A stretch of DNA of 64,000 nucleotides from Candidatus Binatia bacterium (GTDB lineage Bacteria > Desulfobacterota > Binatia > DP-6), in contig DATGIZ010000035.1 of assembly GCA_035295465.1 (NCBI GenBank), positions 74,677-138,676 on the forward strand, given 5' to 3'. A program made the translations under genes and the position numbers. Below, one piece after another: positions 3,664 to 21,772 of the stretch. Below the pieces are notes generated by a model. That model was not told where the DNA came from. It saw nothing but the letters and a program-made list of their open reading frames with translations, and did no database searches. How positions within the stretch are numbered: position 1 is the stretch's first letter; each line of letters opens with the position of its first letter.

Positions 3664-3719
3664 TGCCGGGACCGGGGCTCGAACCCGGACGACGGTTACC
3701 CGTCAGCGGATTTTAAGCC
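3664..3719. repeat. attL-like partial copy of the tRNA-Leu 3' half (about 54 nt, 2 mismatches)
   Basis: tgccgggaccggggctcgaacccggacgacggttacccgtcagcggattttaag matches 23135-23190; it covers the tRNA from its 3' end to the anticodon loop. Confidence 0.8.
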
Positions 3720-5321: not shown

Positions 5322-5391
5322 GCCCGGTCCCCGCGGGCCCCCCACACCAGGTCCTTCGATCGTCCATCAAGGTCCACACGCACCGTCCCCT

Positions 5392-8307
5392 TCAGCTCCA
5401 CGCACCGATCAACACAAACGGTGCCCAGAAGTATGGCGCCGCAAGCGATTCCTCCCGGCCGAGGGCATCGCTCTGAACCGTGCGCTCCATGAGCTCGATT
5501 CGCGCTAGCCGCAGGGCGTCCGCCTTCGTTGCGCCGTCCCGCAAGTGCCTGTAGAACGCCTCCATGAACAGGCTGGTGGACTGGTCGTTGACTGGCCACA
5601 AACTCGCCACCACCGCGCGGCTTCCAGCATATAGGAAGGCGCTTGTGAGGCCGACGAGACCCTCCCCGCGGTAAAGCTTCCCCTCAGCGGTGTTGCACGC
5701 GGACAAGACGACGAGTTCAGCGTTCAGTCGAAGATCGAATATCTCCGACATTTTGAGAAAGGGGTTTTCCCCATCCGTATCGGAAAAGACCAGCGTCGGC
5801 TGGTTGATCCACTTCACATCGTCGCCAACGACCGCGTGTGTAGCAAAATGCAGGATGCGATAGCGCCTTAGGTCGATGTCCTGCAGACGGCGCTTCGTCG
5901 CTCGCTCCCGCAGATTGATCACATCGGACCCGGGAGCTACCCCGTAGAGCGAGGCGATCCGTTGCACCTCGTTGGCCGAGTACGGCAGACGGCCAAAGCC
6001 GTGGCTCATGCGCTCGTAGGTACCGCGCACGTTGAACGCCACGGCACGGCCTTCGGGAGCGGACGAATATACGGGATCACCGAAAGCGAGAAGGGGCAAC
6101 TGTGGTTGCTCCTTGCTTACGCCCTCGCTGTAGCCCCGCCTCGTCAGGAAGACCAACACCGAGGCCGAGGGGGCGTAACTCACGGCATACTGCCTCGCAA
6201 GGTACGGCACCGACGACAGCGCGGGGTTCATCCTGCCGTCAGCATGTGCCGTTGGCCGAATGAGCGCCTCGAAGGGTAGGTAGCAGAGGGCCCCGGCGGG
6301 GATAACGACGACGTGCTCCCGCCCCCTGATCTCGTCGGCCGCTGGCTGAACCAGTATATGATAGAGCCGCTGACCGAGACGGATGTGGGACTTGATCTCA
6401 TCGGGACCTATGAGCGGGGTGTCAAGCGTCTTGCGGTAGCGTGCGACGAGGTCTGCGATACGGTCCCCTCTGGCAAGGGGGAGCAGACGCACATCGGTCC
6501 GGGTGACGACCCATAGCGCCGACACTTCCTCCCCCGATGGTCTCTCGCCCAGGGCATATTCCAGCAGGATGGTGTGGTCATCAAGGAGCGCCTGCACGTC
6601 TATGATGGAGGCCGTCTCGCTTCTCGCCGTCTGGGAACGGTCACTGGCCGCATGCGAAGAAGCCGTGGACACGGCCGCTGCCTCACTGGCGACGGCAGCC
6701 TCAAGGTCGGAGTGCGCCTGGCGACCAGCGGGGACCTGCTCCGAGAGGGCCCGCTTGAGGCTGCGAACCTGCTCCGATCCGGGCTCACGTGTCTCGTTAA
6801 TCATATCCAGGAGCGTGTGAGCCTTCCCCCTTTCGAGGTACTGGAATGCTTGAATAGCGTTCCCGTCGTTCCGTCCGTTTGCCTGAAGCTTCAGAGACGT
6901 CGCGACTGCATCTAAATAGAATTGCATTGCCTCGTCACGGACTGAGAGCTGCACACGGCCAGCCCGCTGTGCATGGCCGATCCGGTCAAGGATATCGATG
7001 GCCTGCGAATAGAGCGTCAGCGCCTCGTCGAGCTGGCCTTCCTCCTCTTTCACAGAGCCCATCTCATTGAGCAGGATATAGTCGTCCGGGTCGTGAACGC
7101 GCTGATCAACACGGCGAGCCTCTTCAAGTGCGCTCCACGCCGCCCGAAGCTGTCCAACCTGCTGGTATGCCAAGCCGAGGTTGTACAGGTCGCCGGCAAC
7201 TTCGCCGAGCGCCTCACGGCTCGCACGGGCAGCGACGCGGTGAAGCGCCAACGCCAACTTCGAGCATGCGATTGCGGAATCCACGTTGCCGTTCCAGGCT
7301 TCGACTTCCCCCAGCATTTGGAGGGCCACCGCGCCGTCCGGTGTCAGGGGGAACCCGTCGGCCCCGGCTGTCGTCTCCAACCAGTCCTGCAGTAGGCTCC
7401 GCAGGCTACTGAGTGCCGTCTGGGTGCATTGGCGCGTCTGCGCAGTGTCGTCTCGATCGTTGGCGACGGATGCGAGCATTCCGAGAGCGCGAAGCTGAAG
7501 ATTCCGATCGCCGGCCTCGCTGGCTTGACCGAGCGCATCGTGGAACCATCGCTCCGCCTCGTCCAAGTCCCCGACCAACTGGTGAACCTCGCCAAGGCCG
7601 ATAAGAGCCTCTGCGGCACGCTGGTGATCATCCGCGCGCAAAAAGTCCGCCAGCGCGGAATCGTATAGCTGAAGAGCCACGTCGTACCGGTCGCGATTCT
7701 GTGAGAAGAGGGCCTTGTCGAGCACCACTTGAGCTTCAAGAGCCCGGTCTCCGGTCTCGTGCGCCACCTCTCTCGCAGTCAGGAAAGACTGCTCGGCTTC
7801 CTTAGGCTTCCCCATGGCGTCCATCACGCGAGCTGAGGCCCGCAGCGCCGCGATCTCTGCGACCCGATCCCGTCGAGCTTGGGCGCGTTTGCGCCGTCCC
7901 TCGTAGAAGCGCACCGCCTTGGCTGGATCGGCTGGGCCTTGGACATCCGCCAACTCTCGCCCAAAGAGGTCAGCTAGACGCGCCGATCTCGAGGGAACCA
8001 GTTCAGTTAGAGCATCGAGCGCATCTGTCATCCGACCGAGCCGAAGAGAGGTCCGCACCAGAGCTACCAACACGTCCGGGTTCGCCGGATCGAGCTGTCG
8101 AACGCGCTGGAACGCCTCAAGCGCCTCCTGGTTGTGGCCGCCTTTCTCGAAGGCGAGGCCGGCACGGAAACATGCCCTGGTATCCCCGCGCTTCGAGGTG
8201 CTCCGGATTGCTTGGCAAGGATCGATGGCGCTTGCCACACCGCTGGCGGCGCTCACCAGAATGCACAAGCCCAGAATTCGCGTGGTGCTCACCGCAAGCT
8301 GCGTCAC
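5392..8307 (-). CDS. secreted TPR-repeat protein with C-terminal CHAT (caspase-like) protease domain
   Basis: N-terminal signal peptide MTQLAVSTTRILGLCILVSAASGVASA; multiple TPR-like repeats; the C-terminal CHAT domain has the His/Cys dyad (HFATHAV, LSACNTAEG); the GTG start overlaps the upstream gene stop (GTGA). Confidence 0.88.
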   Translation of the reverse strand: MTQLAVSTTRILGLCILVSAASGVASAIDPCQAIRSTSKRGDTRACFRAGLAFEKGGHNQEALEAFQRVRQLDPANPDVLVALVRTSLRLGRMTDALDALTELVPSRSARLADLFGRELADVQGPADPAKAVRFYEGRRKRAQARRDRVAEIAALRASARVMDAMGKPKEAEQSFLTAREVAHETGDRALEAQVVLDKALFSQNRDRYDVALQLYDSALADFLRADDHQRAAEALIGLGEVHQLVGDLDEAERWFHDALGQASEAGDRNLQLRALGMLASVANDRDDTAQTRQCTQTALSSLRSLLQDWLETTAGADGFPLTPDGAVALQMLGEVEAWNGNVDSAIACSKLALALHRVAARASREALGEVAGDLYNLGLAYQQVGQLRAAWSALEEARRVDQRVHDPDDYILLNEMGSVKEEEGQLDEALTLYSQAIDILDRIGHAQRAGRVQLSVRDEAMQFYLDAVATSLKLQANGRNDGNAIQAFQYLERGKAHTLLDMINETREPGSEQVRSLKRALSEQVPAGRQAHSDLEAAVASEAAAVSTASSHAASDRSQTARSETASIIDVQALLDDHTILLEYALGERPSGEEVSALWVVTRTDVRLLPLARGDRIADLVARYRKTLDTPLIGPDEIKSHIRLGQRLYHILVQPAADEIRGREHVVVIPAGALCYLPFEALIRPTAHADGRMNPALSSVPYLARQYAVSYAPSASVLVFLTRRGYSEGVSKEQPQLPLLAFGDPVYSSAPEGRAVAFNVRGTYERMSHGFGRLPYSANEVQRIASLYGVAPGSDVINLRERATKRRLQDIDLRRYRILHFATHAVVGDDVKWINQPTLVFSDTDGENPFLKMSEIFDLRLNAELVVLSACNTAEGKLYRGEGLVGLTSAFLYAGSRAVVASLWPVNDQSTSLFMEAFYRHLRDGATKADALRLARIELMERTVQSDALGREESLAAPYFWAPFVLIGAWS

Positions 8308-9941
8308 TTCTGACAGACGTGAACCTGCCGATACGGTATCGTCCCTTTGGCAAGCGCGGCGATCAACTCGCCGATCATCGAGGAGAGCTTGGGCGGGTGT
8401 TCGGGCTTGACGTACCGGGTCACTGTGTCGGCTCCGGCGTCTGCGTACCCGATCAAGTCAACGATCCCGTCACAGTCCACGTCGAAGTAGAACACGGTCG
8501 TCGCGGCCTTCGACTCAATGACGGTGTCGAGGGTGTTCTTCTCGTTGCGGCCGACGACAGCGTACTTCAGGGTCCGCGCCTGGGCGTCCCGATAAATGAG
8601 CCACATGTCGGGCGGCGGGACCGTGCTCTGCACATACGCGCCGGCGATTCCATGTCCGAATCGCTCCACGCGGTAGGCCGAGGGGGAAGACGGGGAGGTC
8701 ACAGGGGCAACCCGGCTCGTTGCCCGCTTGAGGAAATTGCTTACCTCGTCAGCGGCCACCGCATAGTTCAGCCCCTCCTCGCCCTCCCGCCGGAACGAGT
8801 TGATACCAATGATTTCTCCCTGATCGTCGAGGAGAGGGCCGCCGGAGTTGCCGGGGTTGATTGCGGTTTGGGTCTGAATGACCGTGCCCTGATGGAGCAG
8901 GTTGTCGCTACCCTTCCACTGGTAGTTCGGTCGAATCTGGCTAATGACGCCCGTGGTGTAGGTCCAGACCTCCCCCTCGGGATGGCCGATCGCATGGACG
9001 TCCTGCCCCACCTCGATCCTGCCTATATCGGCCACCGGAAGCCATGGGATGGTTCCGCGTGTTGGCGTCGCGACCTTCAGGAGCGCCAAGTCTGCGATCT
9101 GATCAACCTTCAAGAGCGTGGCGGCGTAGGCGGGCTCTTCCTCGATCGACACGCCGTGCTCCGGCTTGAACACCACAGCGATCTTGTTCGCATCTTCCAC
9201 GACGTGCGCGTTCGTCACGATGTGTCCGGCGGGGTCAACGACGACACCACTCCCAAGGCTCTTGTCAGTGACGAGCAGCACGGTGGCGGGGGCGGCCTTC
9301 TTGTAGAGCGCCACATCGTTCGGCCCACGTGTCTCTTCGAGGAGCAGGGTCTTGGGGAGCTGCTCCAGGGCGGAGAGGATCTGCTTGTCGAACGGCAACG
9401 AGGCAGCGGAGGGAGGCGGGGAGTGGCCAAGGACCGCTTGCTCTTGCGGTGAGAGGTCAGCGACCTCTTCCACGCGCGAGACAGCGCCTGGCGGACCGGG
9501 CGTCAGTTGGCGAGTGATGGTCAACCCTGTGAGACGCGTGACAACGAAAACCGCGACGCACACGGCGGCGAATTCCGCGGCGATGCGGGTGATAGGCACT
9601 CGGAAGAAAGTCTTCCAAGTCATCGAGACGACATGCGTGATTCGTGTCACCCGGGAGGGTGGCACGCCGACTCGCGCCGGGGACGACCCGGCCAGAAGCT
9701 TCGCCTTCCGGACGAGATCAGCAGGAGGGTCTTCTCCTGCCTCTTCGAGGCGCGCGAGCGCTCGCAGATCCGTCTGCCGATTCGTACAAGACGGACACGC
9801 CAGAAGATGCGACTCGACCGCGCGACGTTCTTCGGGGTCCAACTGCCCTTCCAGGTAAAGCCCCAGGGCAGCCGTTGACGGACAACCCGGGGCTCTTACG
9901 CGGCCCAGCCTCCGCAGCACATCGTCCGTGATCTCTTTCAC
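8304..9941 (-). CDS. anti-sigma factor (zf-HC2), TM helix, trypsin-like S1 serine peptidase fusion
   Basis: N-terminal CPSC...HLLACPSC zinc-finger anti-sigma motif; one TM segment AAEFAAVCVAVFVVTRL; an S1 protease domain with the H/D/S triad (TNAHVV, DLALLKV, GNSGGPL); a further C-terminal domain of unknown type. Confidence 0.8.
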   Translation of the reverse strand: MKEITDDVLRRLGRVRAPGCPSTAALGLYLEGQLDPEERRAVESHLLACPSCTNRQTDLRALARLEEAGEDPPADLVRKAKLLAGSSPARVGVPPSRVTRITHVVSMTWKTFFRVPITRIAAEFAAVCVAVFVVTRLTGLTITRQLTPGPPGAVSRVEEVADLSPQEQAVLGHSPPPSAASLPFDKQILSALEQLPKTLLLEETRGPNDVALYKKAAPATVLLVTDKSLGSGVVVDPAGHIVTNAHVVEDANKIAVVFKPEHGVSIEEEPAYAATLLKVDQIADLALLKVATPTRGTIPWLPVADIGRIEVGQDVHAIGHPEGEVWTYTTGVISQIRPNYQWKGSDNLLHQGTVIQTQTAINPGNSGGPLLDDQGEIIGINSFRREGEEGLNYAVAADEVSNFLKRATSRVAPVTSPSSPSAYRVERFGHGIAGAYVQSTVPPPDMWLIYRDAQARTLKYAVVGRNEKNTLDTVIESKAATTVFYFDVDCDGIVDLIGYADAGADTVTRYVKPEHPPKLSSMIGELIAALAKGTIPYRQVHVCQK

Positions 9942-10020
9942 GGCGACCTACCCTATCCTCGCTTCCCTGAGTGAGAGGACGTCCAAGGCACGCCTTTTTG
10001 TCTCCCGGGCCGGGCTGGGG

Positions 10021-10614
10021 CTACGATCCTGCTTCAAGGACGCCTGCTCTTCTCATACAGTCCTCGACCTTGGCCTTCGCGCGGAAGTGCTTCGATGCGA
10101 CGGTCCCTTGAGGAAGATCGAACACGGCGGCGATTTCGTCGTACGGGTAGCCTTCCGCCCGCCTCAGGAAGATCTGCCGATCGAGGTCGGTAAGTTCCTG
10201 CAGACAACGTACAGCTTGGTCGAGGAGCTGCCGCATGGTGGCGGCCTTCTCCGGATCCTGGCTCTCTGGCGTGAGCCATGTTGGGTCAGGTCGAGCACAT
10301 CCGGTGTCCTCTTCGGGGACCTCGCGGCGGCGAGCCTGCGCCCGCTGATAGTCCCTGATCTTATTGGCCGTGATGGTCCGCAGGAAGGCGCGAAACTCCC
10401 ATTCCGTATCCCCGTGGAACTGGTCCAGCGCCCCTTTCGCCAGAGTCAGGAAGACCTCCTGGAAGAGATCTTCCCGGCCGGCCTGTCCTAAGCCTTGAAC
10501 TTGCCTCAGGATTCCCCAGACGAGCCGCCTGTATCGGTCAACGAGAGCCTCCCAGACTGACCGTTCGAGGCCGGCGGCCCGTCTGATGCGCTCACGAATC
10601 TCCACCGCGACCAC
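10021..10614 (-). CDS. ECF subfamily RNA polymerase sigma-70 factor
   Basis: Region 2 is DLFQEVFLTLAKG; region 4 is YDEIAAVFDLPQGTVASKHFRAKAKV; it is co-oriented immediately upstream of the anti-sigma-protease gene. Confidence 0.85.
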   Translation of the reverse strand: MVAVEIRERIRRAAGLERSVWEALVDRYRRLVWGILRQVQGLGQAGREDLFQEVFLTLAKGALDQFHGDTEWEFRAFLRTITANKIRDYQRAQARRREVPEEDTGCARPDPTWLTPESQDPEKAATMRQLLDQAVRCLQELTDLDRQIFLRRAEGYPYDEIAAVFDLPQGTVASKHFRAKAKVEDCMRRAGVLEAGS

Positions 10615-10703
10615 GGAAAAAAAACCGAATTCCCGCGTCCTTCTCCCGCAGAGAGGCGACGTCCCAAGGGGACCACGCCAAGAAGGAAAGGGAGGACTCG
10701 ATC

Positions 10704-11018
10704 ATGGGCGACGCGCGTTGGTTGAAGAAGGCCATGCTGGGGGCGGCCATGCTCTGCGTGGCATCGTCGTCCGCTTGGGCCGACGTCTACGTCCACGGCT
10801 ACTATCGCGGGAACGGGACGTACGTCCAGCCATACGTTCGCAGCGACCCGGACGGGAACCCGTACAACAACTGGAGCTACCCGGGGAACGTGAATCCGTA
10901 CACGGGTCGCGTCGCACCTGGCAACGCCGATACGTACCTTTACAACTACTACAACCGGAACGGGGGCAGTGGCTTCGGAACGCTGGATGACTCCGAAGAC
11001 GAGGGTGGCGATGATTGA
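10704..11018 (+). CDS. small secreted protein with NPY/YxxN repeats and a polyacidic C-terminus
   Basis: Signal peptide AMLCVASSSAWA; Tyr/Asn/Pro-rich repeats; tail DDSEDEGGDD; it is divergent from the ECF sigma gene and paralogous to 11738-12034. Confidence 0.55.
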   Translation: MGDARWLKKAMLGAAMLCVASSSAWADVYVHGYYRGNGTYVQPYVRSDPDGNPYNNWSYPGNVNPYTGRVAPGNADTYLYNYYNRNGGSGFGTLDDSEDEGGDD

Positions 11019-11415
11019 ACGGCATCAAAGTGTGCAGAGTCCGTCGGGCCTCCGGTCCGCATCTGTGCGGCTCGCGGGACTGGCCCTACTCATGGCACTT
11101 TCGCTGGGCGCAAGCGGCTGGGCGGCCACCGTTGCCGAGATTGCGAAGAACCCCACCGGCTTCGATCAGAAAACGGTGACGGTGAGTGGTACCGCCGAGG
11201 CGGTTAGCAGCCGCACCTCACGCCGGGGCAACCCGTATACGACGTTTCGGCTCGCTGGCCAGGGCGAGGTGGTCAAGGTCTTCAGCTTTGGGACGCTGCC
11301 GATCAAGCCAGGGGATCGGGTCCAAGTCCAAGGCACCTTTCAACACGTGAAACACGTCGGTCCTAGCACGTTCTATGACGAGATCACGGCATCGTCGGTT
11401 GAGCCCACCAAATAG
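11011..11415 (+). CDS. secreted hypothetical protein, possibly a BOF/OB-fold-like periplasmic protein
   Basis: ATG at 11011 overlaps the preceding stop; signal peptide LAGLALLMALSLGASGWAA; a beta-rich pattern of the OB-fold type. Confidence 0.45.
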   Translation: MIERHQSVQSPSGLRSASVRLAGLALLMALSLGASGWAATVAEIAKNPTGFDQKTVTVSGTAEAVSSRTSRRGNPYTTFRLAGQGEVVKVFSFGTLPIKPGDRVQVQGTFQHVKHVGPSTFYDEITASSVEPTK

Positions 11416-11457
11416 CATGACGGTGCTTTGGGGCGCGGGCCATCAAGGAGATACGAT

Positions 11458-11685
11458 ATGAGAAGGATCGTGACGCTTGGTACCCTGGTTGCAGTTGCCC
11501 TCCTCTTCTCGCCACCCGTTTTTCGACCTCACCGAGCCGCGGCGCGGTCGGGGGCGGGCACTGGCGTGCCAGCGAACGACGTCGAGAAAAGTGGCTGCTG
11601 CTCTTGGCACGGGGGCGTCTGCGGGTGCGAGGGCAACCGGGTGCAGTGCTGCGACGGCACACTGAGCCCAAGCTGCACCTGCTAG
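11458..11685 (+). CDS. small secreted Cys-rich peptide (bacteriocin/toxin-like)
   Basis: AAGGAG RBS before the ATG at 11458; a signal peptide then the mature tail CCSWHGGVCGCEGNRVQCCDGTLSPSCTC, with 9 Cys in 28 residues. Confidence 0.5.
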   Translation: MRRIVTLGTLVAVALLFSPPVFRPHRAAARSGAGTGVPANDVEKSGCCSWHGGVCGCEGNRVQCCDGTLSPSCTC

Positions 11686-11737
11686 AGCTGCGACTCTTCA
11701 CCCGAGGATCCGTCATCGAGCACGAGGAGGGGGAAAA

Positions 11738-12034
11738 ATGAAGGTTCTTCTACTGACGCTCGTTGTTCTCATCACCGGTATCACCTGGGCAGGAAGCCCC
11801 ATCGTCGTTGCACCGGATGGGACTTACCTTGGGAACTTGAATAGTAACCCATACGATCCGAACTCCGTCGCCAATCCCTACGGCCGCTACGGCAGTCCGT
11901 ACAGCCCAGACAGCATCAACAACCCGTACGGGCAGTACGGGAGTCCGTATAGCCCGAATAGCGTGACGAACCCGTACGCCGTACCTAGCCTCCCGCCGTC
12001 TGACAGCGGATTAGGTGACGACGACGAGGACTGA
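11738..12034 (+). CDS. small secreted protein with NPY/SPYSP repeats and a polyacidic C-terminus (paralog of 10704-11018)
   Basis: Signal peptide MKVLLLTLVVLITGITWAGS; repeats NPYDPNS / NPYGRYGSPYSP; tail GDDDED. Confidence 0.55.
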   Translation: MKVLLLTLVVLITGITWAGSPIVVAPDGTYLGNLNSNPYDPNSVANPYGRYGSPYSPDSINNPYGQYGSPYSPNSVTNPYAVPSLPPSDSGLGDDDED

Positions 12035-12732
12035 GGTGGGGCGCACGTCGCGAGCCGCGCCCGCAGTCGAAGGCACGACACCCTAGGGCCCATTGGGCAC
12101 ACGTCCGCCACGCGGCTGCACATGAGCGGGGTCGAGCCGGGGCGGCACCGCCAGCCGCTGGCGCCCCGAACCTCGGGGCCGCCGTGAGCAACCTGCCGAT
12201 CGTGGGGCCCACCCTCGGGCGCCTTGCCGGGGGCGTCGACAACGCCGTGGCCAACCCGGCAGGGGCCATGCGCGGCGTGCTCGGCGGCGTGGGCGATTGA
12301 TGTGAAGTTCCCCCAGTCGCCGACCGTCTTGCGACATCGGCGCCGAGATTGGCTCGTCGCTCGTCTGGGTGCTGTCCTAAGTAGGGCCGCAGGCTTGCCC
12401 ATCACAAGGCGGCCGTCCGCGTCCATGAGACGCTACGGGTGACGCCCGCAATGGCGCTTGGAGTGACGGACCATGTATGGACGATCGCGGAGTTGGTTGA
12501 TGCCGCACTCTCGGCTCCGGTACCCCCGCCGCTCCTGCCCCCAGGTCAGCAGACCCTTCCGGGCATGAGCGCGGGTCGGGCGAAGGGGACGCGCGGAGGA
12601 CAGCGGCATGGCGAGCGGCCCATACGACTTCGCGTCATCAAAGGCGGTCGAAGCGTCTGACGCAACGCTTCGGGGCCGCCGAAGCACCCCCGTTGGCGGC
12701 AGCGGCGCATCTACGCTACCCTGCCGTCACCG

Positions 12733-13212
12733 ATGCCCTATTCGGCCAAAGCAATCGCCAACTGGTTCTTGAAGAGGGACGAGCTGAGCCCAATGAAGCT
12801 TCAGAAGCTCGTCTACTTCGCCCACGGTTGGAAGCTCGGCCTCCGGGGCACGCCGCTGATCAATGAGGAGATTGAGGCGTGGGACTACGGGCCGGTGGTG
12901 CCCGACCTCTATCACGAGTTCAAGCAATTCGGCAGCGCACCGATCACGGCCTTCGCGACGCGTTGGAAGCTCGACGACGGGAAGCCGCGGTTGGTGCAGC
13001 CGCTCGTCCCGCCCGATGCCGTAGACACGCAAGCCCTTCTCCGTCGCATCTGGAAGGTCTACGGGCACAAGACCGGTGGACAACTGTCCGCCATTACACA
13101 CCTTCCCGACTCGCCGTGGAGTCAGATCCGGCGAGAGTGCAACACTCGCGGCGCCGTCATTCCTAACGAGCGCATCGCCGCGTATTTCAAGCGCCTCGCT
13201 CAGCGTCCGTAG
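12733..13212 (+). CDS. Panacea domain (DUF4065) protein, SocA/PanA-like antitoxin
   Basis: MKLQKLVYFAHGW ... EAWDYGPVVPDLY is characteristic of DUF4065; a small toxin candidate lies immediately downstream, its ATG abutting this gene's TAG stop. Confidence 0.78.
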   Translation: MPYSAKAIANWFLKRDELSPMKLQKLVYFAHGWKLGLRGTPLINEEIEAWDYGPVVPDLYHEFKQFGSAPITAFATRWKLDDGKPRLVQPLVPPDAVDTQALLRRIWKVYGHKTGGQLSAITHLPDSPWSQIRRECNTRGAVIPNERIAAYFKRLAQRP

Positions 13213-13692
13213 ATGAGCGATGAGGTCCGCCCGAAGCCTTCAACGGAGGAACCCCCGCCGAAGGCCGAGCTGGACCTCATTAAGGTCCCCGCCGAGCCCC
13301 TTCCCGAGGAGGAGGGTGAGCGTTTCGAGCGGCAGGAAGCGGAAGCACTTGATCGCGAGCGGACAAAGGAGGACCAGCTCCAAGATCGCGAGCGCCAGCT
13401 CGCGCTGGACATCAAGGAGCACGGTCTCCGTCAAGCCCGGCACGAGCTTGCGGAACGCACCAAGTACGCGGGCCGCCTCTTCAACCTCATCCTGTGGTGG
13501 CTGGTCGGGATAGGCGGGATCATCCTCCTTCAGGGATTTCATCGACTGCCGTTCTGGCCACACATTCGCTTCAGGCTCTCTGATCCGGCCCTGCTCGCGC
13601 TCATCGGAGGCACGACGCTCAACGTCCTCGGCATCTTCGTCGTCGTGGTGAACTACCTCTTCCCCAAGCGAAGAGATGGGCGAATGTTCTAA
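13213..13692 (+). CDS. small membrane protein, candidate PanT-like toxin partner
   Basis: The ATG directly abuts the PanA stop; a charged coiled-coil N-terminus and two predicted C-terminal TM helices (LFNLILWWLVGIGGIILL, LIGGTTLNVLGIFVVVVNYLF). Confidence 0.45.
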   Translation: MSDEVRPKPSTEEPPPKAELDLIKVPAEPLPEEEGERFERQEAEALDRERTKEDQLQDRERQLALDIKEHGLRQARHELAERTKYAGRLFNLILWWLVGIGGIILLQGFHRLPFWPHIRFRLSDPALLALIGGTTLNVLGIFVVVVNYLFPKRRDGRMF

Positions 13693-13815
13693 CTTCCCGT
13701 CGCGGGTGTCCGACTTTAGGACATCACCCTCGTCCGCGCGACATTGCAACGGATGCGCGTTTCGGTCTAGAAGAGGTACGTTCTCCGTGTCGGAGCCCGG
13801 GGAAGTCGTTGTGAC

Positions 13816-15390
13816 GTGAGCAATCGACGAGCGCGCGGCGCACCTCGGAGAGACCGTGCCTCCGGGCCTGAACTGGTCTTCGGCGTCGTAGGGGCCTTGG
13901 GTACCGACGTCGGCAGGCTCACGAGCACCCTACAGGAAGCACTCTCCGACTTCCGCTACACGCCTGTTCCCATTCGCCTCTCGGATCTGCTGCGCGAGTT
14001 CCCGGCTTGGAGCGGTCTGCCAAGGAGCCCGCACGATGACAGAATCGAAGCGCTTCAGAACGCCGGAAACGAGCTGCGCAAGGCCGGCGGGGGCGAAGCG
14101 ATGGCGGCCCTCGCCCTTGCGGAGATCCAGGGATACCGAACGCGTAACGGCCACGATGCGAAGAAGCCAGTAAGCGCTGCCGCGTACATCCTCCGATCAC
14201 TGAAGCACCCCGCAGAAGAGGAGCTGCTGCGAGCGATCTATGGCTCGTCGTTCTTCCTCATCGCCGCCTACGCTCCGATAGAGGAGCGGCGGAAAAACCT
14301 CGCGCGCGAGATAGCACGGTCCCGCCATGGCATGCGCCAAGCCGAGGCGCTCGCCCGGTCCGACACCCTGATCCAAAGGGACGATCACGAGCAGGATCGC
14401 TCGCATGGACAGCTAGTTAGGGACACGTTCCCGCGCGCCGACGTGTTTGTTGCAGTTCATCGCCCCGATGAGACGGTTGAACAGATGCAGCGCTTCGTCG
14501 ACTTGGTCTTCGGCCACCCGTTCCACACCCCAACACAAGACGAATTCGCGATGTTTCAGGCTCGAGCGGGAGCACTGCGATCAGCGGATCTTTCCCGCCA
14601 AATCGGTGCAGCGATTGCGACGGGGCATGGCAGCGTTGTGGCCCTTGGAACAAACGAGGTGCCCAGGGCCGGCGGCGGCCAGTACTGGTCTGGGGATCGT
14701 CCGGACCACCGAGATTTTCAGCTCGGAGAAGACGAGAGTCTCCGTATCCGTAGCAGCATGCTGGCCGAGATACTCCTGCGGATGGAAGCTGAGGGGTGGC
14801 TTCAGATGGAGGTCGGGACAAGAGTCAAACGGGACGTGGACAGGGAGGTCGGAGTCCTATTGCCCCTTCTGAGGGAGACGACCATGATGAGCGTCGGAGA
14901 GTTCGGCAGGACGGTACATGCCGAGATGGCAGCTCTCATGGATGCCGCTAGACGCGGCGTACCTGTTCAGGGCTCTACGCTCTTTTCCACCACGTTTCCC
15001 TGCCACAACTGCACCAAGCACATCGTGGCAGCAGGGATAAGAAGGGTCGTATACATTGAGCCCTTCCCCAAGAGCCGTGCGGCAGAGCTTCACGATGATT
15101 CGATCGTTGTTGATCCCTCCGGGCAAGTCGAGGGGAAGGTGAACTTCGAGCCCTTCGTGGGCATCGCGCCGAGGCGCTACCTCGAGCTTTTCACGATGCA
15201 GCGTCGTGAGAACCCTGACGGTTCGGTTGTTCGATTCACGAGGGCGGCCGCTGCCCCGCGAGTCTCGGCAACGAGGGGCTACGTAGAGACGGAAGACGTC
15301 GCGGTCGTCGAGCTTTGGAAACGGCTGAAGCAAGCTGGTATGAGGCTCCACACGCCCGAAGGAAGGCGCCGCGGGACAGTGAGGAGGTGA
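13816..15390 (+). CDS. dCMP/cytidine deaminase zinc-binding domain protein with a long N-terminal domain (anti-phage dCTP deaminase-like)
   Basis: C-terminal HAEMAAL...PCHNCTKHIVAAGIRRVVY deaminase motifs (HxE, PCxxC); a roughly 270-aa N-terminal domain of unknown type; GTG start; on the island next to a toxin-antitoxin pair. Confidence 0.62.
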   Translation: MSNRRARGAPRRDRASGPELVFGVVGALGTDVGRLTSTLQEALSDFRYTPVPIRLSDLLREFPAWSGLPRSPHDDRIEALQNAGNELRKAGGGEAMAALALAEIQGYRTRNGHDAKKPVSAAAYILRSLKHPAEEELLRAIYGSSFFLIAAYAPIEERRKNLAREIARSRHGMRQAEALARSDTLIQRDDHEQDRSHGQLVRDTFPRADVFVAVHRPDETVEQMQRFVDLVFGHPFHTPTQDEFAMFQARAGALRSADLSRQIGAAIATGHGSVVALGTNEVPRAGGGQYWSGDRPDHRDFQLGEDESLRIRSSMLAEILLRMEAEGWLQMEVGTRVKRDVDREVGVLLPLLRETTMMSVGEFGRTVHAEMAALMDAARRGVPVQGSTLFSTTFPCHNCTKHIVAAGIRRVVYIEPFPKSRAAELHDDSIVVDPSGQVEGKVNFEPFVGIAPRRYLELFTMQRRENPDGSVVRFTRAAAAPRVSATRGYVETEDVAVVELWKRLKQAGMRLHTPEGRRRGTVRR

Positions 15391-15393
15391 GTC

Positions 15394-15564
15394 ATGGTGG
15401 ACAAGGGGCAGAAGCCATCGGGCTGGATTGGTCGCAGGATGGAGGACTTGGAGCGAGAGTCGAAAGACTGGCCCATCTGGAAGCAAGAGGATCTCCGAGA
15501 GCGCCTCGAGCGTGATGGTGTGCAGTGCGTAGAGCCTTCCGATCAGCCTCGAGGCAAATCGTAG
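15394..15564 (+). CDS. small hypothetical protein (56 aa) overlapping the deaminase stop
   Basis: GAGGAGG RBS 6 nt upstream of the ATG; a charged product MVDKGQKPSGWIGRRMEDLERESKDWPIWKQEDL...; not in the ORF track (under 60 aa). Confidence 0.3.
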   Translation: MVDKGQKPSGWIGRRMEDLERESKDWPIWKQEDLRERLERDGVQCVEPSDQPRGKS

Positions 15565-15582
15565 CAGCGCGTCGACGGGCGC

Positions 15583-16167
15583 ATGCGCACCGTGGTGACC
15601 CGCGCCGACTGGCTCGGCGCCTCTGGCCCCACGAACGCGTTCCTATGGGAGCAAGTGGCGCGGCGTCGTGGCGAAAGCCCCACAGCGCCCGTGGCCGTCG
15701 TGCGGTTGGAGGACCTTGCCCCGGGTGCAAGCGCCGACACCGCCCCCGACCCGCAGCACACGGCACCCGGGGCACCAGCCGTGGCCGTGGACCCGGGCGT
15801 GCCACTTCGCCGCCGCGCCGCCGGCGCTCCTCTGGCGCTCGCGATCACGTCAACGGCGCTCGCGTCAGGGAGGCGAGTCGAGTGCCCGCATTGCGGGGAG
15901 CACTTCACGCCGGCGCCGAAGCCCGGGAAGAAACCGACGCGCCGCCTGCCACCGGATGCCCGGTTCCTCAGTTGGCTCGCGGCTCGGGGCGGCAGTGCCT
16001 CCGTGAGCAGCATCGCCCGCCGGTTCCACCTGCGCCGAGCCGAGCTTGTCGTCCTCCTCGGCCGCTTCGCCCACGCCGGTGTCGTCTTGAACCACGACGG
16101 CCGTGGTGGCGGCTACCGCTTTCACTTGCTGCGCGTGCCCGCCCGCTCGAGCGCGCTGGCCCTGTAG
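15583..16167 (+). CDS. hypothetical protein with a CPHC zinc-ribbon-like motif
   Basis: ORF only; CPHCGEHF motif; no recognisable family. Confidence 0.35.
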   Translation: MRTVVTRADWLGASGPTNAFLWEQVARRRGESPTAPVAVVRLEDLAPGASADTAPDPQHTAPGAPAVAVDPGVPLRRRAAGAPLALAITSTALASGRRVECPHCGEHFTPAPKPGKKPTRRLPPDARFLSWLAARGGSASVSSIARRFHLRRAELVVLLGRFAHAGVVLNHDGRGGGYRFHLLRVPARSSALAL

Positions 16168-16648
16168 CTGGTGCGAGGTGGGTGCGGGTTGGGCACGCCC
16201 AGCTCCGCGGCCGCATCTCGCGCACGCGCCCGGCAGGCCGCGCCATGCGGAACGCAGTCCCACCGCTGGCACTAGTCGGTACCGGTCCGGATTAGGAATC
16301 CGCGGAGCGGTTCTAGGCAGCGGAACTCCCAGGGGTTTCCAGCGCCTCTCCGCCTTCTCTCCGCGTCGCGACCAAGCCGGGCTCGCCGATCTGCCGTGAT
16401 CGCTGCTGAGGCGATCGCGAAGGGGGGGACTATAGCACTTTGGCCGTTTGCCGGGCTGGGGCACGCCCCTTCCCGGAATTACTAAAGCGGCTCACAAGAG
16501 CTTCGACGCGCTGCGTTAGCACCGAGCGCACCGAGCCCTCCGTGCACTCACGGCGTCCTCGATGGAGCCCCGACGTGCGACGTCGGCGGTGCGACGTGCT
16601 TACTCGGCCGTCGTCTCGCCGGACTGTCTCGTTCGCTCGATTCGTTTG

Positions 16649-17242
16649 CTACGCGTGCGATCGTTCGACAGCCACACTGCCCCAAGCAGGACGGCAAGTA
16701 GCAACAGCATGGTGATGACCACAAGTAGCGCATGCACCGAAAGCACGCTGAGCACCACGAAGCACCCGATGCCGAGCACGCACAGCGTCACGACCACTGC
16801 CCAGGCATACCGAATACGGCGACGGCGCGCGGATTCGCCCACGACACCGATATACGTGAACGCCTTCACCGCCTTTTCCGAAGTCGGGGTTGCGGCGCAT
16901 CGCCGCCACGGCGCGGCGGTGCCGCCTCTCGACGGGGAGACGTAAGACTGCGTAGAGTGCTTCCAGACCGGCCACGATGATCCCCAGCGTTGCGAAGACT
17001 ACGTTCTCCGCGTGAGTGTATGGTCTTCCTCCCCGGTCGAACACGAGGACCTGGACGAGCACATAGAGGACAAGGGCGACGCAGGGCGGCCAGAATGTCC
17101 ACGCGGCAGCGAGGTTGTAGCGATGCTTCGCCCGTTCGCAGGCCACTAACGTTTCGGCTAGGTCGTTCGCTTCGCGTGCACCGAACGCCAACCCGTCCTT
17201 GACTGCCTCAACGATCGTGTACCGTGAACCTTCTCGCGTCAT
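16649..17242 (-). CDS. hypothetical membrane protein (extent uncertain; the C-terminal third is probably read-through)
   Basis: Two hydrophobic helices; competes with an overlapping 89-aa membrane ORF (16600-16869) in another frame. Confidence 0.25.
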   Translation of the reverse strand: MTREGSRYTIVEAVKDGLAFGAREANDLAETLVACERAKHRYNLAAAWTFWPPCVALVLYVLVQVLVFDRGGRPYTHAENVVFATLGIIVAGLEALYAVLRLPVERRHRRAVAAMRRNPDFGKGGEGVHVYRCRGRIRAPSPYSVCLGSGRDAVRARHRVLRGAQRAFGACATCGHHHAVATCRPAWGSVAVERSHA

Positions 17243-17321
17243 GGGTCATTCCAACAAGAAATTCGCGTGGCGTCGCCGCTTCTTCGATGGAGCGTAGCTC
17301 CCCCCGCAGGGGAGCGGCAAA

Positions 17322-18107
17322 CTACTTCTTGGAGATCCCGCCTGACTTCGGCTCCAGACTCTCGCGACGCTGGCGCTCAGCATCCTCGTCTGTAGAGAAT
17401 ATGCGCGCCCGCTGATAGCGCCGAATACGCCGGCGCATCTCGTCATCGCTCCACGGTGGCCACCTCCCGGTCCTCATGTAGTGCTTGAAGCGCTCACGGT
17501 AGGTCCGTTCGACTTCGGGGAAACCACGGGCAAGCCGGCGGTCCCACCCTCTGCCGCTGGCGAGGGCCGCCCCCAATGCCCGACGGTCCTCTGGATCGGA
17601 TTGGACTTGGACTGCGCGCTCCAAGAACTGCCGCACCCGCGGGTCGGTGCAGAGTGCGATCGGCTTGAGACGAACAATATCCGCAATTGCTCGCCGAATC
17701 GCCCGCTCGACCCCTTCCAGTGCTCCCGGTGGCGTCGGCGCCGCGAAGGAGCGCTCGTATTGAGGGCGGTAGTTCTCTCGGAGGGCCAGCGCCTCGTCGA
17801 GGGCCTTGCTCGCCTCCTCCACGGTGCGCGCGGCGCCACGAATGGCTCGGCCGCTCTGCCGATGGAGCGGTCGACTTCCCACCACCTCGGCGAAGAGGTG
17901 ATCGAGCGGGGAGCCGAGCGCGCGGGCCAACCGGTTGAGGGTGCTGAGTTTGGGGTCGCCACCGCGCTCGATCGTCCCGATCTGAGGCTGCGAAACTCGC
18001 GCCTTGCGCGCGAGTTCACGAAGGCTCCACCCGCGGTCGTCGCGGAGGCGCCGCACCGTTCGACCGACCCGCTGCCCGAGTGACCCGATAGGTGGACTGA
18101 TCAGCAC
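17322..18107 (-). CDS. XRE family helix-turn-helix transcriptional regulator with a C-terminal extension (island repressor-like)
   Basis: WSLRELARKARVSQPQIGTIERGGDPKLSTLNRLARALG is a cro/C1-type HTH. Confidence 0.72.
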   Translation of the reverse strand: MLISPPIGSLGQRVGRTVRRLRDDRGWSLRELARKARVSQPQIGTIERGGDPKLSTLNRLARALGSPLDHLFAEVVGSRPLHRQSGRAIRGAARTVEEASKALDEALALRENYRPQYERSFAAPTPPGALEGVERAIRRAIADIVRLKPIALCTDPRVRQFLERAVQVQSDPEDRRALGAALASGRGWDRRLARGFPEVERTYRERFKHYMRTGRWPPWSDDEMRRRIRRYQRARIFSTDEDAERQRRESLEPKSGGISKK

Positions 18108-18225
18108 GGATGATGCTGGCGTGCAAGCCCTTGCGCCGCCTGTTCATCCTCGCTGCCGCCTTCGACCACTTTGTGCCCTGGATTCAGCCTTGGTGCCCTT
18201 GAAGCGGTGGGCTACCTCCCTACCC

Positions 18226-18456
18226 ATGATGACAAGTCCCGACCGCCTACTGACCTGCCCGGAGGTGGCACATCGGCTAGCGGTGAGCCCCTCAACCATC
18301 AGGCTCTGGACCGCGCAGCGCCGCATCCCGTCGGTCAAGATCGGTCCCAGCGCAGTCCGATACCGCTGGGACGACGTCGAGGCCGTGATCCGTGCCGGCG
18401 AGCGGCCCCGTCTCGACAGAAGCGGCCGTGAGACCCCACCGCCGGAGGCGGCGTGA
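18226..18456 (+). CDS. excisionase/AlpA-like helix-turn-helix DNA-binding protein
   Basis: LLTCPEVAHRLAVSPSTIRLWTAQRRIPSVKIGPSAVRYRWDDVEAVI is an excisionase-family HTH; it is divergent from the XRE regulator. Confidence 0.62.
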   Translation: MMTSPDRLLTCPEVAHRLAVSPSTIRLWTAQRRIPSVKIGPSAVRYRWDDVEAVIRAGERPRLDRSGRETPPPEAA

Positions 18457-18712
18457 AAGGACGAAACGCCGCGCGGCCCAGCGAGAGCACGGCGCGGCGT
18501 TCCAGCTAACGAGCTATGCGCCACCTACACCGGAAGCGTCCCCCACGCAATGCACTCCTGCTCCCGTGGGTCGAGCGTGCCCCCACCGACTTCCTCGCGC
18601 GGGGCTGGGCAATCCTGCGCGAGCGCGATCCCGATGAGGTTCGAGCGGTGGTCGATGTGGTCGAGGAGCGCCTCGCCGCCGCACGACGAGCACGGAGGAG
18701 GAATCGCGCCGT

Positions 18713-19543
18713 ATGAGCGCCGAGATGCTCCTCGACGCCGCAGTTGCCTACGCCACCCGCGGGTGGCGCGTGTTCCCGTGCTCGCAGAACAAGGCCCCGC
18801 GCACGCCGCACGGGGTTCTCGACGCGACGACCGACACCACGACTATCCGGGCATGGTGGACGAAGCACCCCGCGCCGAGCATCGGCATCGCCACGGGGCA
18901 GGGCTCCGGCTTGGTCGTGCTCGACGTCGACCCGCGCCACGGCGGCGACGATGCACTTGCTGAGCTTGGGCAGCAGTACCGGACCCTGCCGGCCACCCCG
19001 CGGGTGATCACGGGGGGCGGCGGGACACACATCTACCTGCGCCACCCCGGCAGCGTCGTCCCGTGCTCCACCGGCCGGCTCGGTAGGGGCCTCGATGTCC
19101 GCGGCGCTGGCGGCTACGTGATCGCGCCGCCGAGCGGGCATGCGAGCGGTCGGTCCTACATCTGGATGATCGGCTACGGCCCCGACGACGTGCCGCTGGC
19201 CGCTACACCCCCCTGGCTGCTCGGGCTCATCGCGTCGACAGCGGGCCATCGGTTGCGGAGGAACGGCACCGCGCTGGTCATCCCGTTCGGCGAGCGCAAC
19301 GCGACGCTGGCGCGCTTTGGTGGCCTGCTCCGGCGCTACGGCCTGAACGCGGTCGCCATCCGGGACGCGTTGACCGCGATCAACCGCGAGCACTGCACGC
19401 CGTCATTGCCCGCCAATGAGGTGGAGAGGATCGCCGCGAGCGTCTCGCGTTATACCCCGGCCCTTCTCCCGCCTTTGCACCCTTTTCGCGCCGGGACGCC
19501 GGCCGACGCGCTGGTCGCCCGGGCGCTGGGCCTCTTGCCATGA
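18713..19543 (+). CDS. bifunctional DNA primase/polymerase (PrimPol) N-terminal domain protein
   Basis: GWRVFPC...K.P...GV.DAT.D...I..WW...P..SIGIATG..SGLVVLDVD ... GGGTHIYL is the canonical PrimPol pattern. Confidence 0.85.
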   Translation: MSAEMLLDAAVAYATRGWRVFPCSQNKAPRTPHGVLDATTDTTTIRAWWTKHPAPSIGIATGQGSGLVVLDVDPRHGGDDALAELGQQYRTLPATPRVITGGGGTHIYLRHPGSVVPCSTGRLGRGLDVRGAGGYVIAPPSGHASGRSYIWMIGYGPDDVPLAATPPWLLGLIASTAGHRLRRNGTALVIPFGERNATLARFGGLLRRYGLNAVAIRDALTAINREHCTPSLPANEVERIAASVSRYTPALLPPLHPFRAGTPADALVARALGLLP

Positions 19544-20790
19544 AGGTGCTCACACCGACCCCCGAGATGTTCCCGCCGCCCCTTAACCTGCTGCGCGACG
19601 CCTGTGCGCACACGGAGGCGCATTCGGCTGCCGTCGCAGTGCAGTTTCTCGTGGCGGTCGGCAACATGGTCGGCCGCGAGGCCCACACGTACGTCGGGGA
19701 GACGCGTCACGGAACCAACGAGTTCGCGCTGATCGTTGGCCCGACTGCGACGGGCCGCAAGGGGGATTCCAAGAACACGGCGGTAGCGCCCCTCGAAGGC
19801 GCAGATAGCGAGTGGTTCGCGAGCATCACGGGGGGGCTTAGCAGCGGGGAAGGGCTGATCCACGCGGTGCGGGATCCTGTCTACGGCGCCAACAAGAAGG
19901 GCGAAGAGGTGCTGGTCGACCCCGGCGTCACGGACAAGCGCCTCTTGTGCGTCGAGACCGAGTTCTCCTCGGTACTCAAGCAGTTCCGCCGCGAGCACAA
20001 CATCCTGTCGAACACGCTGCGCGAGGCGTGGGATGGGAAGCGCGTCCTGCGCACATTGACCAAGACCTCACCAACGCGGGCAACCGATGCACACATTTCG
20101 CTCATCGGGCACGCCACCCCTGAGGACCTGCGCGCCTACCTCGCCGACCTCGATGTCGCGAACGGCGTTGTCAACCGGTTTCTGCTCACCGCGTGCAGCC
20201 GGCCACGCCTCGTCCCTTGTCCCCGCCGCCTCCCGGACGAGGTGCGGCGGCGCGTGACCGAGCACGTGCGCGGCGTGCTCAGTCACGCGCGCAACATCGG
20301 CCATGTTCCACGAACCGAGGCGGCGGAGGCACTGTGGTGCAAGCTCTACCTTGACGAGAAGGGGCTCGCAGCCAAGCGGCCCGGCCTCCTTGGCGCACTG
20401 CTTGCCCGCGGACCTGCACACCTCACCCGCCTCGAGTTGATCTTCGCGCTGCTCGCCAGCGCCCGGGCGCGGGACGTCAACCACCTCATCGCGGCCGCCG
20501 CGTGGTGGGACTATTGCGTCGCTTCCGCGGAGGTCATCTTCGCTGACCGCACCGGGAACGACGCCGCCGATCGCATCCGGGCAGAGCTGCTGCCGGGCGA
20601 GAGCATGACGTTGTCGGAGATCCGCGAGCAGCTCTTCGCGAACAAGATCGCCTCGGGTCGACTCCGCGATGCCTTGGCCCTGCTCCGGGACCTGGGCGAG
20701 GTGACGTTAACGAAGCGCGAGACCGATGGTCGTTCCGCCGTCGTGGTAACCCGCGTTGTCGCTGCTGCCGCGGCTGCGGGGGGAGCGTGA
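19540..20790 (+). CDS. DUF3987 domain protein (PrimPol-associated helicase-like replication protein)
   Basis: The ATG overlaps the PrimPol stop (ATGA); this is the typical partner of PrimPol in integrative elements. Confidence 0.65.
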   Translation: MKVLTPTPEMFPPPLNLLRDACAHTEAHSAAVAVQFLVAVGNMVGREAHTYVGETRHGTNEFALIVGPTATGRKGDSKNTAVAPLEGADSEWFASITGGLSSGEGLIHAVRDPVYGANKKGEEVLVDPGVTDKRLLCVETEFSSVLKQFRREHNILSNTLREAWDGKRVLRTLTKTSPTRATDAHISLIGHATPEDLRAYLADLDVANGVVNRFLLTACSRPRLVPCPRRLPDEVRRRVTEHVRGVLSHARNIGHVPRTEAAEALWCKLYLDEKGLAAKRPGLLGALLARGPAHLTRLELIFALLASARARDVNHLIAAAAWWDYCVASAEVIFADRTGNDAADRIRAELLPGESMTLSEIREQLFANKIASGRLRDALALLRDLGEVTLTKRETDGRSAVVVTRVVAAAAAAGGA

Positions 20791-21200
20791 CCGTGCGTGC
20801 GAAAGGGGAGGGGGAAAAGGTTGAAAAGGGCAGGAAAGCCTCTTTTCACGCCTTTTCCACCTTTTCTCCCAAGGAGATGAATCTGCTCGAGATCGCTCGG
20901 CGAGCACTGGATGTTTCCGGTCCCTACGAATGCCCGAGTCAACCAGTGCCGCGCGCTATTTTGCCGAACGCTCCGCTGGCGCTCAGCGAGGCCACCGGCC
21001 GCCGGCTGGCCGTGCTCTACGCCGAGCTGGACCCCGTCGAGCGGCGCCGGCTCGACCTTGAGGCTGAGGGCGGCGACGGGCTCGCCCGGCTGGTGCTCGA
21101 CGCCCTGGCGATGGCCGACGAGGCGACCGGAACCGTCCATGAGAGCGGCGAGGGCCGCCGGTGCGACGCCCGTCCTGGCGAGGCGGAGGTGGCGTTCTAG
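20787..21200 (+). CDS. hypothetical protein
   Basis: GTG start overlapping the upstream stop; no recognisable domain. Confidence 0.35.
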   Translation: MTVRAKGEGEKVEKGRKASFHAFSTFSPKEMNLLEIARRALDVSGPYECPSQPVPRAILPNAPLALSEATGRRLAVLYAELDPVERRRLDLEAEGGDGLARLVLDALAMADEATGTVHESGEGRRCDARPGEAEVAF

Positions 21201-21203
21201 GCG

Positions 21204-21539
21204 ATGGCCGACACCCTCGACATCCCCACGCTGCTACCGCCGGAAATGGTTGCCTCGCTGCCGCCGGAGCAGCTCCCCGCCCTGGCGCTATACCTTGCGG
21301 GCCTCCAGTCGGCAGTGGCTGGGCGGCTCTATCAGATGCAGCCCCTGTCCCGGCGTGAGCACGCCGAGCAGCCGAGCCGGCTCCTCACGGCCAAGGAAGT
21401 TGCCGCGCGGACGAGGCTCTCGGTGGACTACCTCTACCGCCGGGCCGACCGACTTCCCTTTGCGCGCCGGATCGGGCGCGCCGTACGATTTGACGAGACC
21501 GGCCTTGAGCGTTGGCTTGCAGGCCGCCGGCCCCGTTGA
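21204..21539 (+). CDS. helix-turn-helix DNA-binding protein (AlpA/excisionase-like)
   Basis: LLTAKEVAARTRLSVDYLYRRADRLPFARRIGRAVRFDETGLERWL. Confidence 0.6.
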   Translation: MADTLDIPTLLPPEMVASLPPEQLPALALYLAGLQSAVAGRLYQMQPLSRREHAEQPSRLLTAKEVAARTRLSVDYLYRRADRLPFARRIGRAVRFDETGLERWLAGRRPR

Positions 21540-21571
21540 CGGGCGCTTGTAAGATATGACAGTATCGCCAT

Positions 21572-21769: not shown

Positions 21770-21772
21770 CCC

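Follow-up and report, generated by a model that had tools for sequence, protein, structure and literature searches.

We identified two directly adjoining genes in a 64,000-nucleotide stretch of DNA from an uncultured Candidatus Binatia bacterium (assembly GCA_035295465.1, contig DATGIZ010000035.1, positions 74,677 to 138,676; this whole stretch is called the window, and coordinates are positions in it). The upstream gene, panA, encodes a Panacea antitoxin and the downstream gene, panT, encodes a small protein that is a candidate membrane toxin. The features of the pair are given below; residue numbers refer to the encoded proteins and TM denotes a transmembrane helix.

12733-13212, + strand: panA, ATG to TAG, 159 amino acids; stand-alone Panacea (DUF4065) antitoxin, without an extra N-terminal domain
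13210-13215, + strand: TAG/ATG junction, zero-nucleotide gap, same frame, as read in the sequence
13213-13692, + strand: panT, ATG to TAA, 159 amino acids; candidate T3-type membrane toxin
13267-13281, + strand: short linear motif ELDLI (PanT residues 19-23), from its conservation in the disordered N-terminus
13306-13473, + strand: long charged cytoplasmic helix (PanT residues 32-87), predicted by AlphaFold2 and ending in the conserved juxtamembrane R82-x-x-Y85-A86
13474-13536, + strand: TM1 (PanT residues 88-108), predicted from hydropathy, AlphaFold2 and conservation; W96-L97 and G108-F109 conserved
13582-13659, + strand: TM2 (PanT residues 124-149), predicted from hydropathy, AlphaFold2 and conservation; signature A129-x-I-G-G-T-T-x-N-V-x-G140-x-F, followed by N-Y-L-F-P-K

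An earlier note on this DNA had placed the start of the second gene on the base after the stop codon of the first, and this is what is found: the TAG of panA occupies 13210-13212 and the ATG of panT follows directly at 13213. A separate Shine-Dalgarno sequence for panT is not visible at the junction, and the arrangement of the two codons suggests that panT may be translationally coupled to panA. The GC content at third codon positions (GC3) is 0.81 for panA and 0.77 for panT, in a region of about 62% GC, and supports coding on the + strand. An antisense open reading frame (ORF) at 13240-13749 was dismissed as a high-GC artefact because GC3 favors the + strand genes.

PanA Is a Panacea Domain Protein

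The assignment of the upstream protein to DUF4065/SocA had been based on two motifs, KLQKLVYFAHGW (residues 22-33) and EAWDYGPVVPDLY (residues 48-60). Both are present in PanA, and the assignment held in a profile search, in which PanA matched PF13274 (SocA_Panacea) with an E-value of 6.8e-20 and 72.5 bits (gathering cut-off 25.7) over profile positions 1-112 of 113. The best NCBIfam match of PanA is NF047745 (SocA_antitoxin; E=7e-30), but the score of 104 bits lies below the equivalog cut-off of 190, so that PanA is to be regarded as a Panacea protein and not as a SocA orthologue. In GenBank the product (P0295) is named 'type II toxin-antitoxin system antitoxin SocA domain-containing protein', and the JGI name for its homologues is only 'uncharacterized phage-associated protein'.

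The GPV motif, which is critical for neutralization by Panacea (PMC8832971), corresponds to G53-P54-V55 in PanA. Across 70 aligned homologues, G53 and P54 do not vary and V55 is kept in at least 90%; W50, Y60, H123, and W129 are likewise invariant. An AlphaFold2 model built with the 70 homologues reached a predicted local distance difference test score (pLDDT) of 97.4 and contains seven helices, a beta-hairpin at residues 48-55 and an extra hairpin at residues 77-88. This predicted fold is consistent with the alpha1-alpha7/beta1-beta2 architecture of Panacea (PMC10440598). A sequence search of the PDB returned no solved structural relative of PanA, and the top match of the model in Foldseek (DarTG, 7yk3_B; E=0.015, template modeling score 0.44) is not regarded as meaningful. 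The longer PanA homologues, among which a natural PanA-PanT fusion was sought, turned out to be mis-called starts only.

PanT Is a Predicted Two-Helix Membrane Protein With a Family Signature

The GenBank record of PanT (HLK12367.1) carries the name 'hypothetical protein'. PanT matched none of the Pfam, NCBIfam, PADLOC, or PHROG models, and a sequence search against the PDB yielded noise only. The earlier note had described the protein as having a charged, helical N-terminus and two C-terminal TM helices, on which hydropathy and structure prediction agree. Two hydrophobic segments, with Kyte-Doolittle means over 19 residues above 1.6, are centered at residues 95-101 and 134-141, and the first 87 residues contain 24 D/E and 16 K/R. 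The AlphaFold2 model of PanT, built with 73 homologues and with a mean pLDDT of 84, shows a disordered segment (residues 1-31), a helix (32-111), a loop (112-123), and a second helix (124-149). The first of these helices is a single continuous one (pLDDT 89-96), in which the charged cytoplasmic part runs into TM1. Basic residues lie at each cytoplasmic end, with R82, K84, and R88 preceding TM1 and K152-R153-R154 following TM2, in keeping with a hairpin of predicted N-in/C-in topology.

A search with the single PanT sequence returned nine relatives, and a profile of these nine retrieved 115 proteins in a word-indexed search. An exhaustive search with a hidden Markov model (HMM) against 1.84 billion representatives identified 4186 relatives of PanT at E<=0.001 and 2075 at E<=1e-10, these counts being of cluster representatives at 50% identity. 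Hosts of the family belong to several phyla and include Burkholderia, Acidovorax, Roseateles, Undibacterium, Acidobacteria, Bacteroidetes, cyanobacteria, and alpha- and gammaproteobacterial metagenome-assembled genomes (MAGs). As a specificity control, Escherichia coli and Enterobacter plasmids that carry a PanA encode unrelated soluble partners, and these were not matched by the PanT family HMM. A tblastn search with PanT and its Burkholderia homologue against phage and plasmid collections gave no match, probably as a result of low-complexity and TM filtering. One partial T3-type protein is labeled as coming from E. coli (P0116, WP_305772068.1; locus L027 of GCA_030707525.1). It resembles the Acidovorax and Roseateles members, and the label probably reflects assembly contamination because the protein lies on a 259-bp contig and a search of 5,426 complete E. 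coli genomes did not recover it.

Conservation within the family is concentrated in a few elements. In the disordered N-terminus the pattern [D/T/E]-[L/V/I]-[D/S]-[S/L]-I is found, which reads ELDLI in PanT; the pLDDT is 62-71 there, and I23 is present in 56 of 71 sequences (3.2 bits) while the surrounding region is variable. The juxtamembrane motif has R82 in 73/73 sequences, Y/W/F85 in 73/73, and A86 in 70/73. Further elements are F120-x-L122-S/D at the end of the loop and the near-invariant columns of TM2 (3.2-4.3 bits). All invariant or near-invariant residues of the family are present in PanT, which therefore looks intact, and its charged helix is roughly 20-30 residues longer than in most relatives. 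Residues 19-23 are a candidate PanA-docking peptide, a proposal made by analogy with Bartonella choladocola, whose PanA is modeled in contact with the unstructured N-terminus of its PanT (PMC10440598). The TM2 signature is a candidate oligomerization or pore-lining face.

panA and panT Occur Together in Many Phyla

Loci of panT homologues were fetched, and a homologue of PanA was sought in each of them. In 18 of 19 independent contexts, distributed over many phyla, a PanA homologue is encoded immediately upstream of the panT homologue and on the same strand. Those reached from the PanT side are Burkholderia pseudomallei, Acidovorax, Undibacterium, Pelomonas/Roseateles, and cyanobacterium CCP3, together with four MAGs, one chromosomal locus that recurs on 24 contigs, an IMG/VR viral contig, two metagenome contigs, and three further long contigs. 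The other two of the 18 were reached from PanA homologues, both of which have a gene of the T3 family downstream (E=8.7e-46 and 6.9e-41). The spacing between the two genes is mostly 0, -1, -4, -8, -17, -26, or -29 nucleotides, with a few cases at +21, +81, and +130. Compared with the window PanA by phmmer (E-values of 1e-28 to 1e-44), the PanA proteins of the pairs fall into one tight clade. The flanking genes differ from locus to locus and include prophages, loci flanked by insertion sequences, defense islands, and plain chromosome. The pairing is far beyond chance, and coupled genes whose flanks vary in this way mark a self-contained two-gene module of the toxin-antitoxin (TA) kind.

The Pair Belongs to the PanAT Systems and Is Linked to Toxin Cluster T3

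Panacea antitoxins (PanA) and 88 clusters of toxins paired with them were defined by Kurata et al. (2022; PMC8832971). Three validated toxins of that study have TM helices, from E. coli STEC O31 (T3), Bartonella apis (T12), and Helicobacter (T4) (PMC8832971). The validated T3 pair consists of PanA WP_000287252.1 and PanT WP_000019185.1 of E. coli STEC O31 (PMC8832971), and at least 106 rows in the available part of Dataset S1 are assigned to T3, with this pair among them (PMC8832971). Two members of the PanT family were matched to T3 rows in that part of the dataset by genome assembly, gene order, and intergenic distance. One row lists filamentous cyanobacterium CCP3 (GCF_003022385.1) with order A/T and a distance of 81 (PMC8832971). 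It corresponds to the CCP3 locus of GCA_003022385.1 (L009), in which PanA extends to 3919 and the toxin begins at 4001; this toxin (P0109) matches the PanT family profile with an E-value of 3.3e-22. Another row lists Pelomonas puraquae CCUG 52769 with a distance of -17 (PMC8832971). It corresponds to the Roseateles/Pelomonas puraquae CCUG 52769 locus (L011), with PanA at 2496-3014 and the PanT start at 2998, and the PanT of this strain matches the window PanT in phmmer with an E-value of 1.8e-25. The hydropathy and AlphaFold2 results for PanT agree with the published description of the T3 toxins (PMC8832971). The likeness to PanT membrane toxins that had been proposed earlier thus became a family relation, since the PanT family contains two entries of the cluster to which the depolarizing E. 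coli PanT belongs.

The module of PanA with a T3 toxin was catalogued in 2022 with one validated member, and the window pair is a further member of PanAT. We consider it likely that the pair is a type II PanAT TA module of toxin class T3 that works by the mechanism outlined below. Its domain identity, its architecture, its family membership, and the conserved coupled pairing of its genes are established here. The value as a discovery is limited in that the module had been catalogued before and GenBank already names this PanA as a SocA-domain antitoxin. The T3 toxin family, on the other hand, is covered by no model in Pfam, NCBIfam, or PADLOC, and by no useful one in PHROG, despite its more than 4000 representatives. 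A signature of the family is defined here, consisting of the N-terminal D-L-S-L-I-like peptide, R-x-x-Y-A, W-L...G-F in TM1, and A-x-IGGTT-x-NV-x-G-x-F...NYLFPK in TM2. Together with the almost constant coupling to one PanA clade and the recurrence in prophages and defense islands, it could serve as a starting point for a family model and for examining phage defense by PanAT. This sequence definition and the docking-peptide proposal are the main gain.

Toxicity, pore formation, direct neutralization, and the binding interface are proposed by analogy with the E. coli and Bartonella representatives. The E. coli T3 PanT causes a joint shut-off of transcription, translation, and replication, together with strong depolarization and uptake of SYTOX Green, which its authors read as formation of large pores, and it is neutralized by its PanA (PMC8832971). 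Neutralization by PanA in E. coli was independent of ClpXP and Lon, and pull-downs recovered complexes of PanA with several toxins, most of them soluble (PMC8832971). For B. choladocola, Panacea was modeled on the unstructured N-terminus and the short pre-TM helix of the membrane toxin (Ernits et al., 2023; PMC10440598), and the PanA substitutions Y56A and H120E abolished neutralization (PMC10440598). In PanA of the window, Y52 (before beta2) and the invariant H123 (end of alpha5) would be the counterparts of Y56 and H120, a correspondence drawn by position in the model with pLDDT 97 and without an alignment.

The proposed mechanism is as follows. PanA would be made first from a shared mRNA, with translation of panT coupled at the TAG/ATG junction. 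Because PanT lacks a signal peptide, its acidic N-terminal domain would remain in the cytoplasm, and the C-terminal hairpin (TM1 88-108 and TM2 124-149, N-in/C-in, with K/R on the cytoplasmic flanks) would enter the inner membrane. PanT would then oligomerize via the small/polar A-x-IGGTT-x-NV-x-G face of TM2, and the resulting pores would abolish the membrane potential and so stop all macromolecular synthesis. PanA would bind directly to PanT, with the D-L-x-L-I peptide near the N-terminus and/or the juxtamembrane R-x-x-Y-A helix as the most probable sites. The GPV motif would be part of the PanA surface involved, as would the aromatic residue 52 and His123, and this binding would block pore formation. 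Loss or titration of PanA would set PanT free.

Several observations weigh against this interpretation. The published pull-downs were made for soluble toxins, with membrane toxins not among them, and eight PanTs were not toxic in E. coli (PMC8832971). The likeness to the E. coli T3 PanT, which is the nearest tested protein, rests on transitive membership of the cluster. The periplasmic loop of PanT is unusually basic (net +2). Scans for promoters, terminators, and inverted repeats around the pair found nothing above the shuffled expectation, with the consensus used for promoters and terminators being E. coli-centric. The one context that departs from the pairing holds the most divergent PanT member examined (P0113, at 3001-3498 of locus L021), which is preceded by an ORF of 67 amino acids; PanA was not found in this 6.5-kb locus, also not with tblastn, and P0113 is either an orphan or paired with a different antitoxin.

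The Pair Is Cargo of a Putative Integrative Island

The earlier note had suggested a mobile-element setting, and the surroundings of the pair bear this out: it lies on an island at a tRNA-Leu gene that carries an integrase, next to an anti-phage gene. The features of the island are the following.

3658-23221, no strand: putative integrative island of about 19.5 kb, bounded by tRNA-Leu(taa) and a direct repeat
13816-15390, + strand: anti-phage dCTP deaminase; NF041025 with 435.9 bits (cut-off 400), PADLOC dCTPase with E=4.6e-152
17322-18107, - strand: XRE-type helix-turn-helix (HTH) regulator, inside the island
18713-19543: Prim-Pol with PriCT_1, inside the island
19540-20790: DUF3987, inside the island
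21773-23299, + strand: tyrosine integrase (PF00589), adjoining tRNA-Leu
23134-23221, - strand: tRNA-Leu(taa), the right boundary of the island

An imperfect direct repeat of 60 nucleotides copies the 3' half of the tRNA-Leu gene (3658-3717 against 23129-23188, 57/60 identical), and the tRNA-Leu and this repeat look like the attachment (att) sites of the island. Since panA and panT lie between the tRNA-Leu and its partial copy, and the integrase stands beside the tRNA, the pair can be regarded as cargo of the island. The XRE regulator, Prim-Pol, and DUF3987 genes represent the replication and regulation functions of the island. The integrase ORF continues for about 110 codons past the catalytic domain, antisense across both tRNA-Leu and the att core, so that the C-terminus of the integrase would differ between the integrated and the excised form.

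The remaining genes of the neighborhood are recorded here as side observations. On the - strand, 5392-10614 encodes a TPR-CHAT protease-like protein of 971 amino acids, an ECF sigma factor, and a fusion of a zf-HC2 anti-sigma factor with a trypsin-like peptidase; this cluster may be a signaling or conflict module in the same island. The + strand ORFs at 10704-11018 and 11738-12034 encode small proteins that are predicted to be secreted and contain many N-P-Y/G-S-P-Y-S-P repeats; they have the acidic tails DDSEDEGGDD and GLGDDDED, respectively, and neither has a family match. Just upstream of panA, an ORF at 12439-12660 (+ strand) contains GVTDHVWTIAELVDAAL. It has no Pfam match and a single weak match in a plasmid tblastn search, and may be a remnant of a mobile-element (transposase) gene. 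An ORF at 16649-17242 (- strand), located after the deaminase region and before the XRE regulator, encodes 197 amino acids with hydrophobic stretches and without family matches. A selenocysteine tRNA gene (tRNA-SeC) is present at 27430-27524 on the + strand.

Phage Defense and Other Explanations

The setting of the pair makes a role in phage defense plausible. The same two genes could chiefly constitute an abortive-infection or phage-defense module, in which a phage product displaces or destroys PanA, acting as the sensor, and the freed PanT depolarizes the cell. This would be a biological role on top of the TA mechanism and not a separate mechanism, and as the chief function of the pair we hold it to be possible but rather doubtful. 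The pair lies 123 nucleotides upstream of the anti-phage dCTP deaminase on the tRNA-Leu island; the deaminase, however, adjoins no PanAT pair in the other loci examined, so that this adjacency is not conserved. Some relatives of the pair lie close to phage or defense genes: the one from B. pseudomallei lies in a P2-like prophage and adjoins portal and terminase genes, the cyanobacterial one stands beside GmrSD, an AAA_15/21 ATPase, and an S subunit of a restriction-modification system, another beside BilD_N and an HTH-M78 peptidase, and one shares an IMG/VR viral contig with a gene resembling MazF. Other family members, in contrast, are found among ordinary housekeeping genes. Ernits et al. 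preferred the view that Panacea senses cues of an unknown kind, and defense was shown for another membrane-depolarizing TA system, RmrTA (PMC10440598). Against this stand the PADLOC models, which match neither PanA nor PanT, and the literature searched, in which no report of defense mediated by PanAT was found. Still more tentative is the proposal that T3-type PanAT is a dedicated abortive-infection module, with a phage-sensing PanA, the D-L-x-L-I peptide as a latch, and a membrane-level action that would form a second layer behind the nucleotide-depleting dCTP deaminase.

It is improbable that PanT is not a toxin at all but an anchor or partner of PanA, with a superinfection-exclusion, holin-like, or regulatory function, or a protein that is inactive in its host. 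The lack of matches to known families, the non-toxic behavior of some tested PanTs (PMC8832971), and the JGI label that speaks only of a phage-associated protein would be compatible with this explanation. PanT is nevertheless in the same cluster as a validated toxin, its family-invariant residues are all intact, and tight coupling of two genes with variable flanks is a TA signature. Very unlikely, finally, is a SocAB-like type VI system in which PanA is a proteolytic adaptor that hands PanT to ClpXP instead of a binding inhibitor; although SocA_antitoxin is the top NCBIfam match of PanA, the conserved peptide near the N-terminus of PanT might serve as a degron, and the two modes of neutralization need not exclude each other according to Kurata et al. 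(PMC8832971), the score is well under the equivalog cut-off, the partner is a two-TM protein and not SocB (T10), and PanA neutralized toxins in E. coli without ClpXP or Lon (PMC8832971).

Comparison With Known Systems

The type II PanAT interpretation was compared with systems that share either a component or the expected outcome. SocAB of Caulobacter crescentus (type VI) shares the Panacea domain of its antitoxin with PanA. SocB, which is toxin cluster T10 (PMC8832971), is a soluble protein directed at the beta-clamp, and SocA is a ClpXP adaptor, whereas the partner of PanA in the window is a membrane protein. Membership of the pair in SocAB was rejected on the NF047745 score given above and on the two-TM partner.

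The type I toxins HokB and TisB, and RmrT (D5) of RosmerTA, have the same expected outcome as PanT, namely depolarization and a global metabolic shut-off. They show no sequence similarity to the PanT family, judged by the absence of Pfam and PADLOC matches, and they are restrained differently, HokB and TisB by antisense RNA and RmrT by an antitoxin of the ImmA-protease type, unlike PanT with its Panacea partner.

The T12 systems (NetFlax D11; the PanT of B. apis, which is the same as that of B. choladocola) have the same design as the window pair, with a small toxin consisting of a charged N-terminus and two TM helices and a stand-alone Panacea antitoxin, by which the T12 toxin is directly neutralized. 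PanA of the T12 member in Aggregatibacter phage S1249 is 34% identical to the window PanA (E=6e-28), and its toxin D11S_2262 overlaps its PanA by 14, as in the available part of Dataset S1. Homology between T3 and T12 toxins was rejected, as the PanT family and D11S_2262 gave an hhalign probability of 0.6% and 1.0 bit (E=0.05) in hmmsearch. The window pair and T12 would be alike in working but do not share a toxin family.

The closest resemblance is to the T3 PanAT systems. The window pair differs from these in belonging to an uncultured Binatia MAG and in the longer charged helix of its PanT. As in the window pair, a stand-alone Panacea gene ('noNTD') lies upstream in the order A/T, the gaps or overlaps are tiny, and the toxin combines a charged N-terminal part with C-terminal TM helices.

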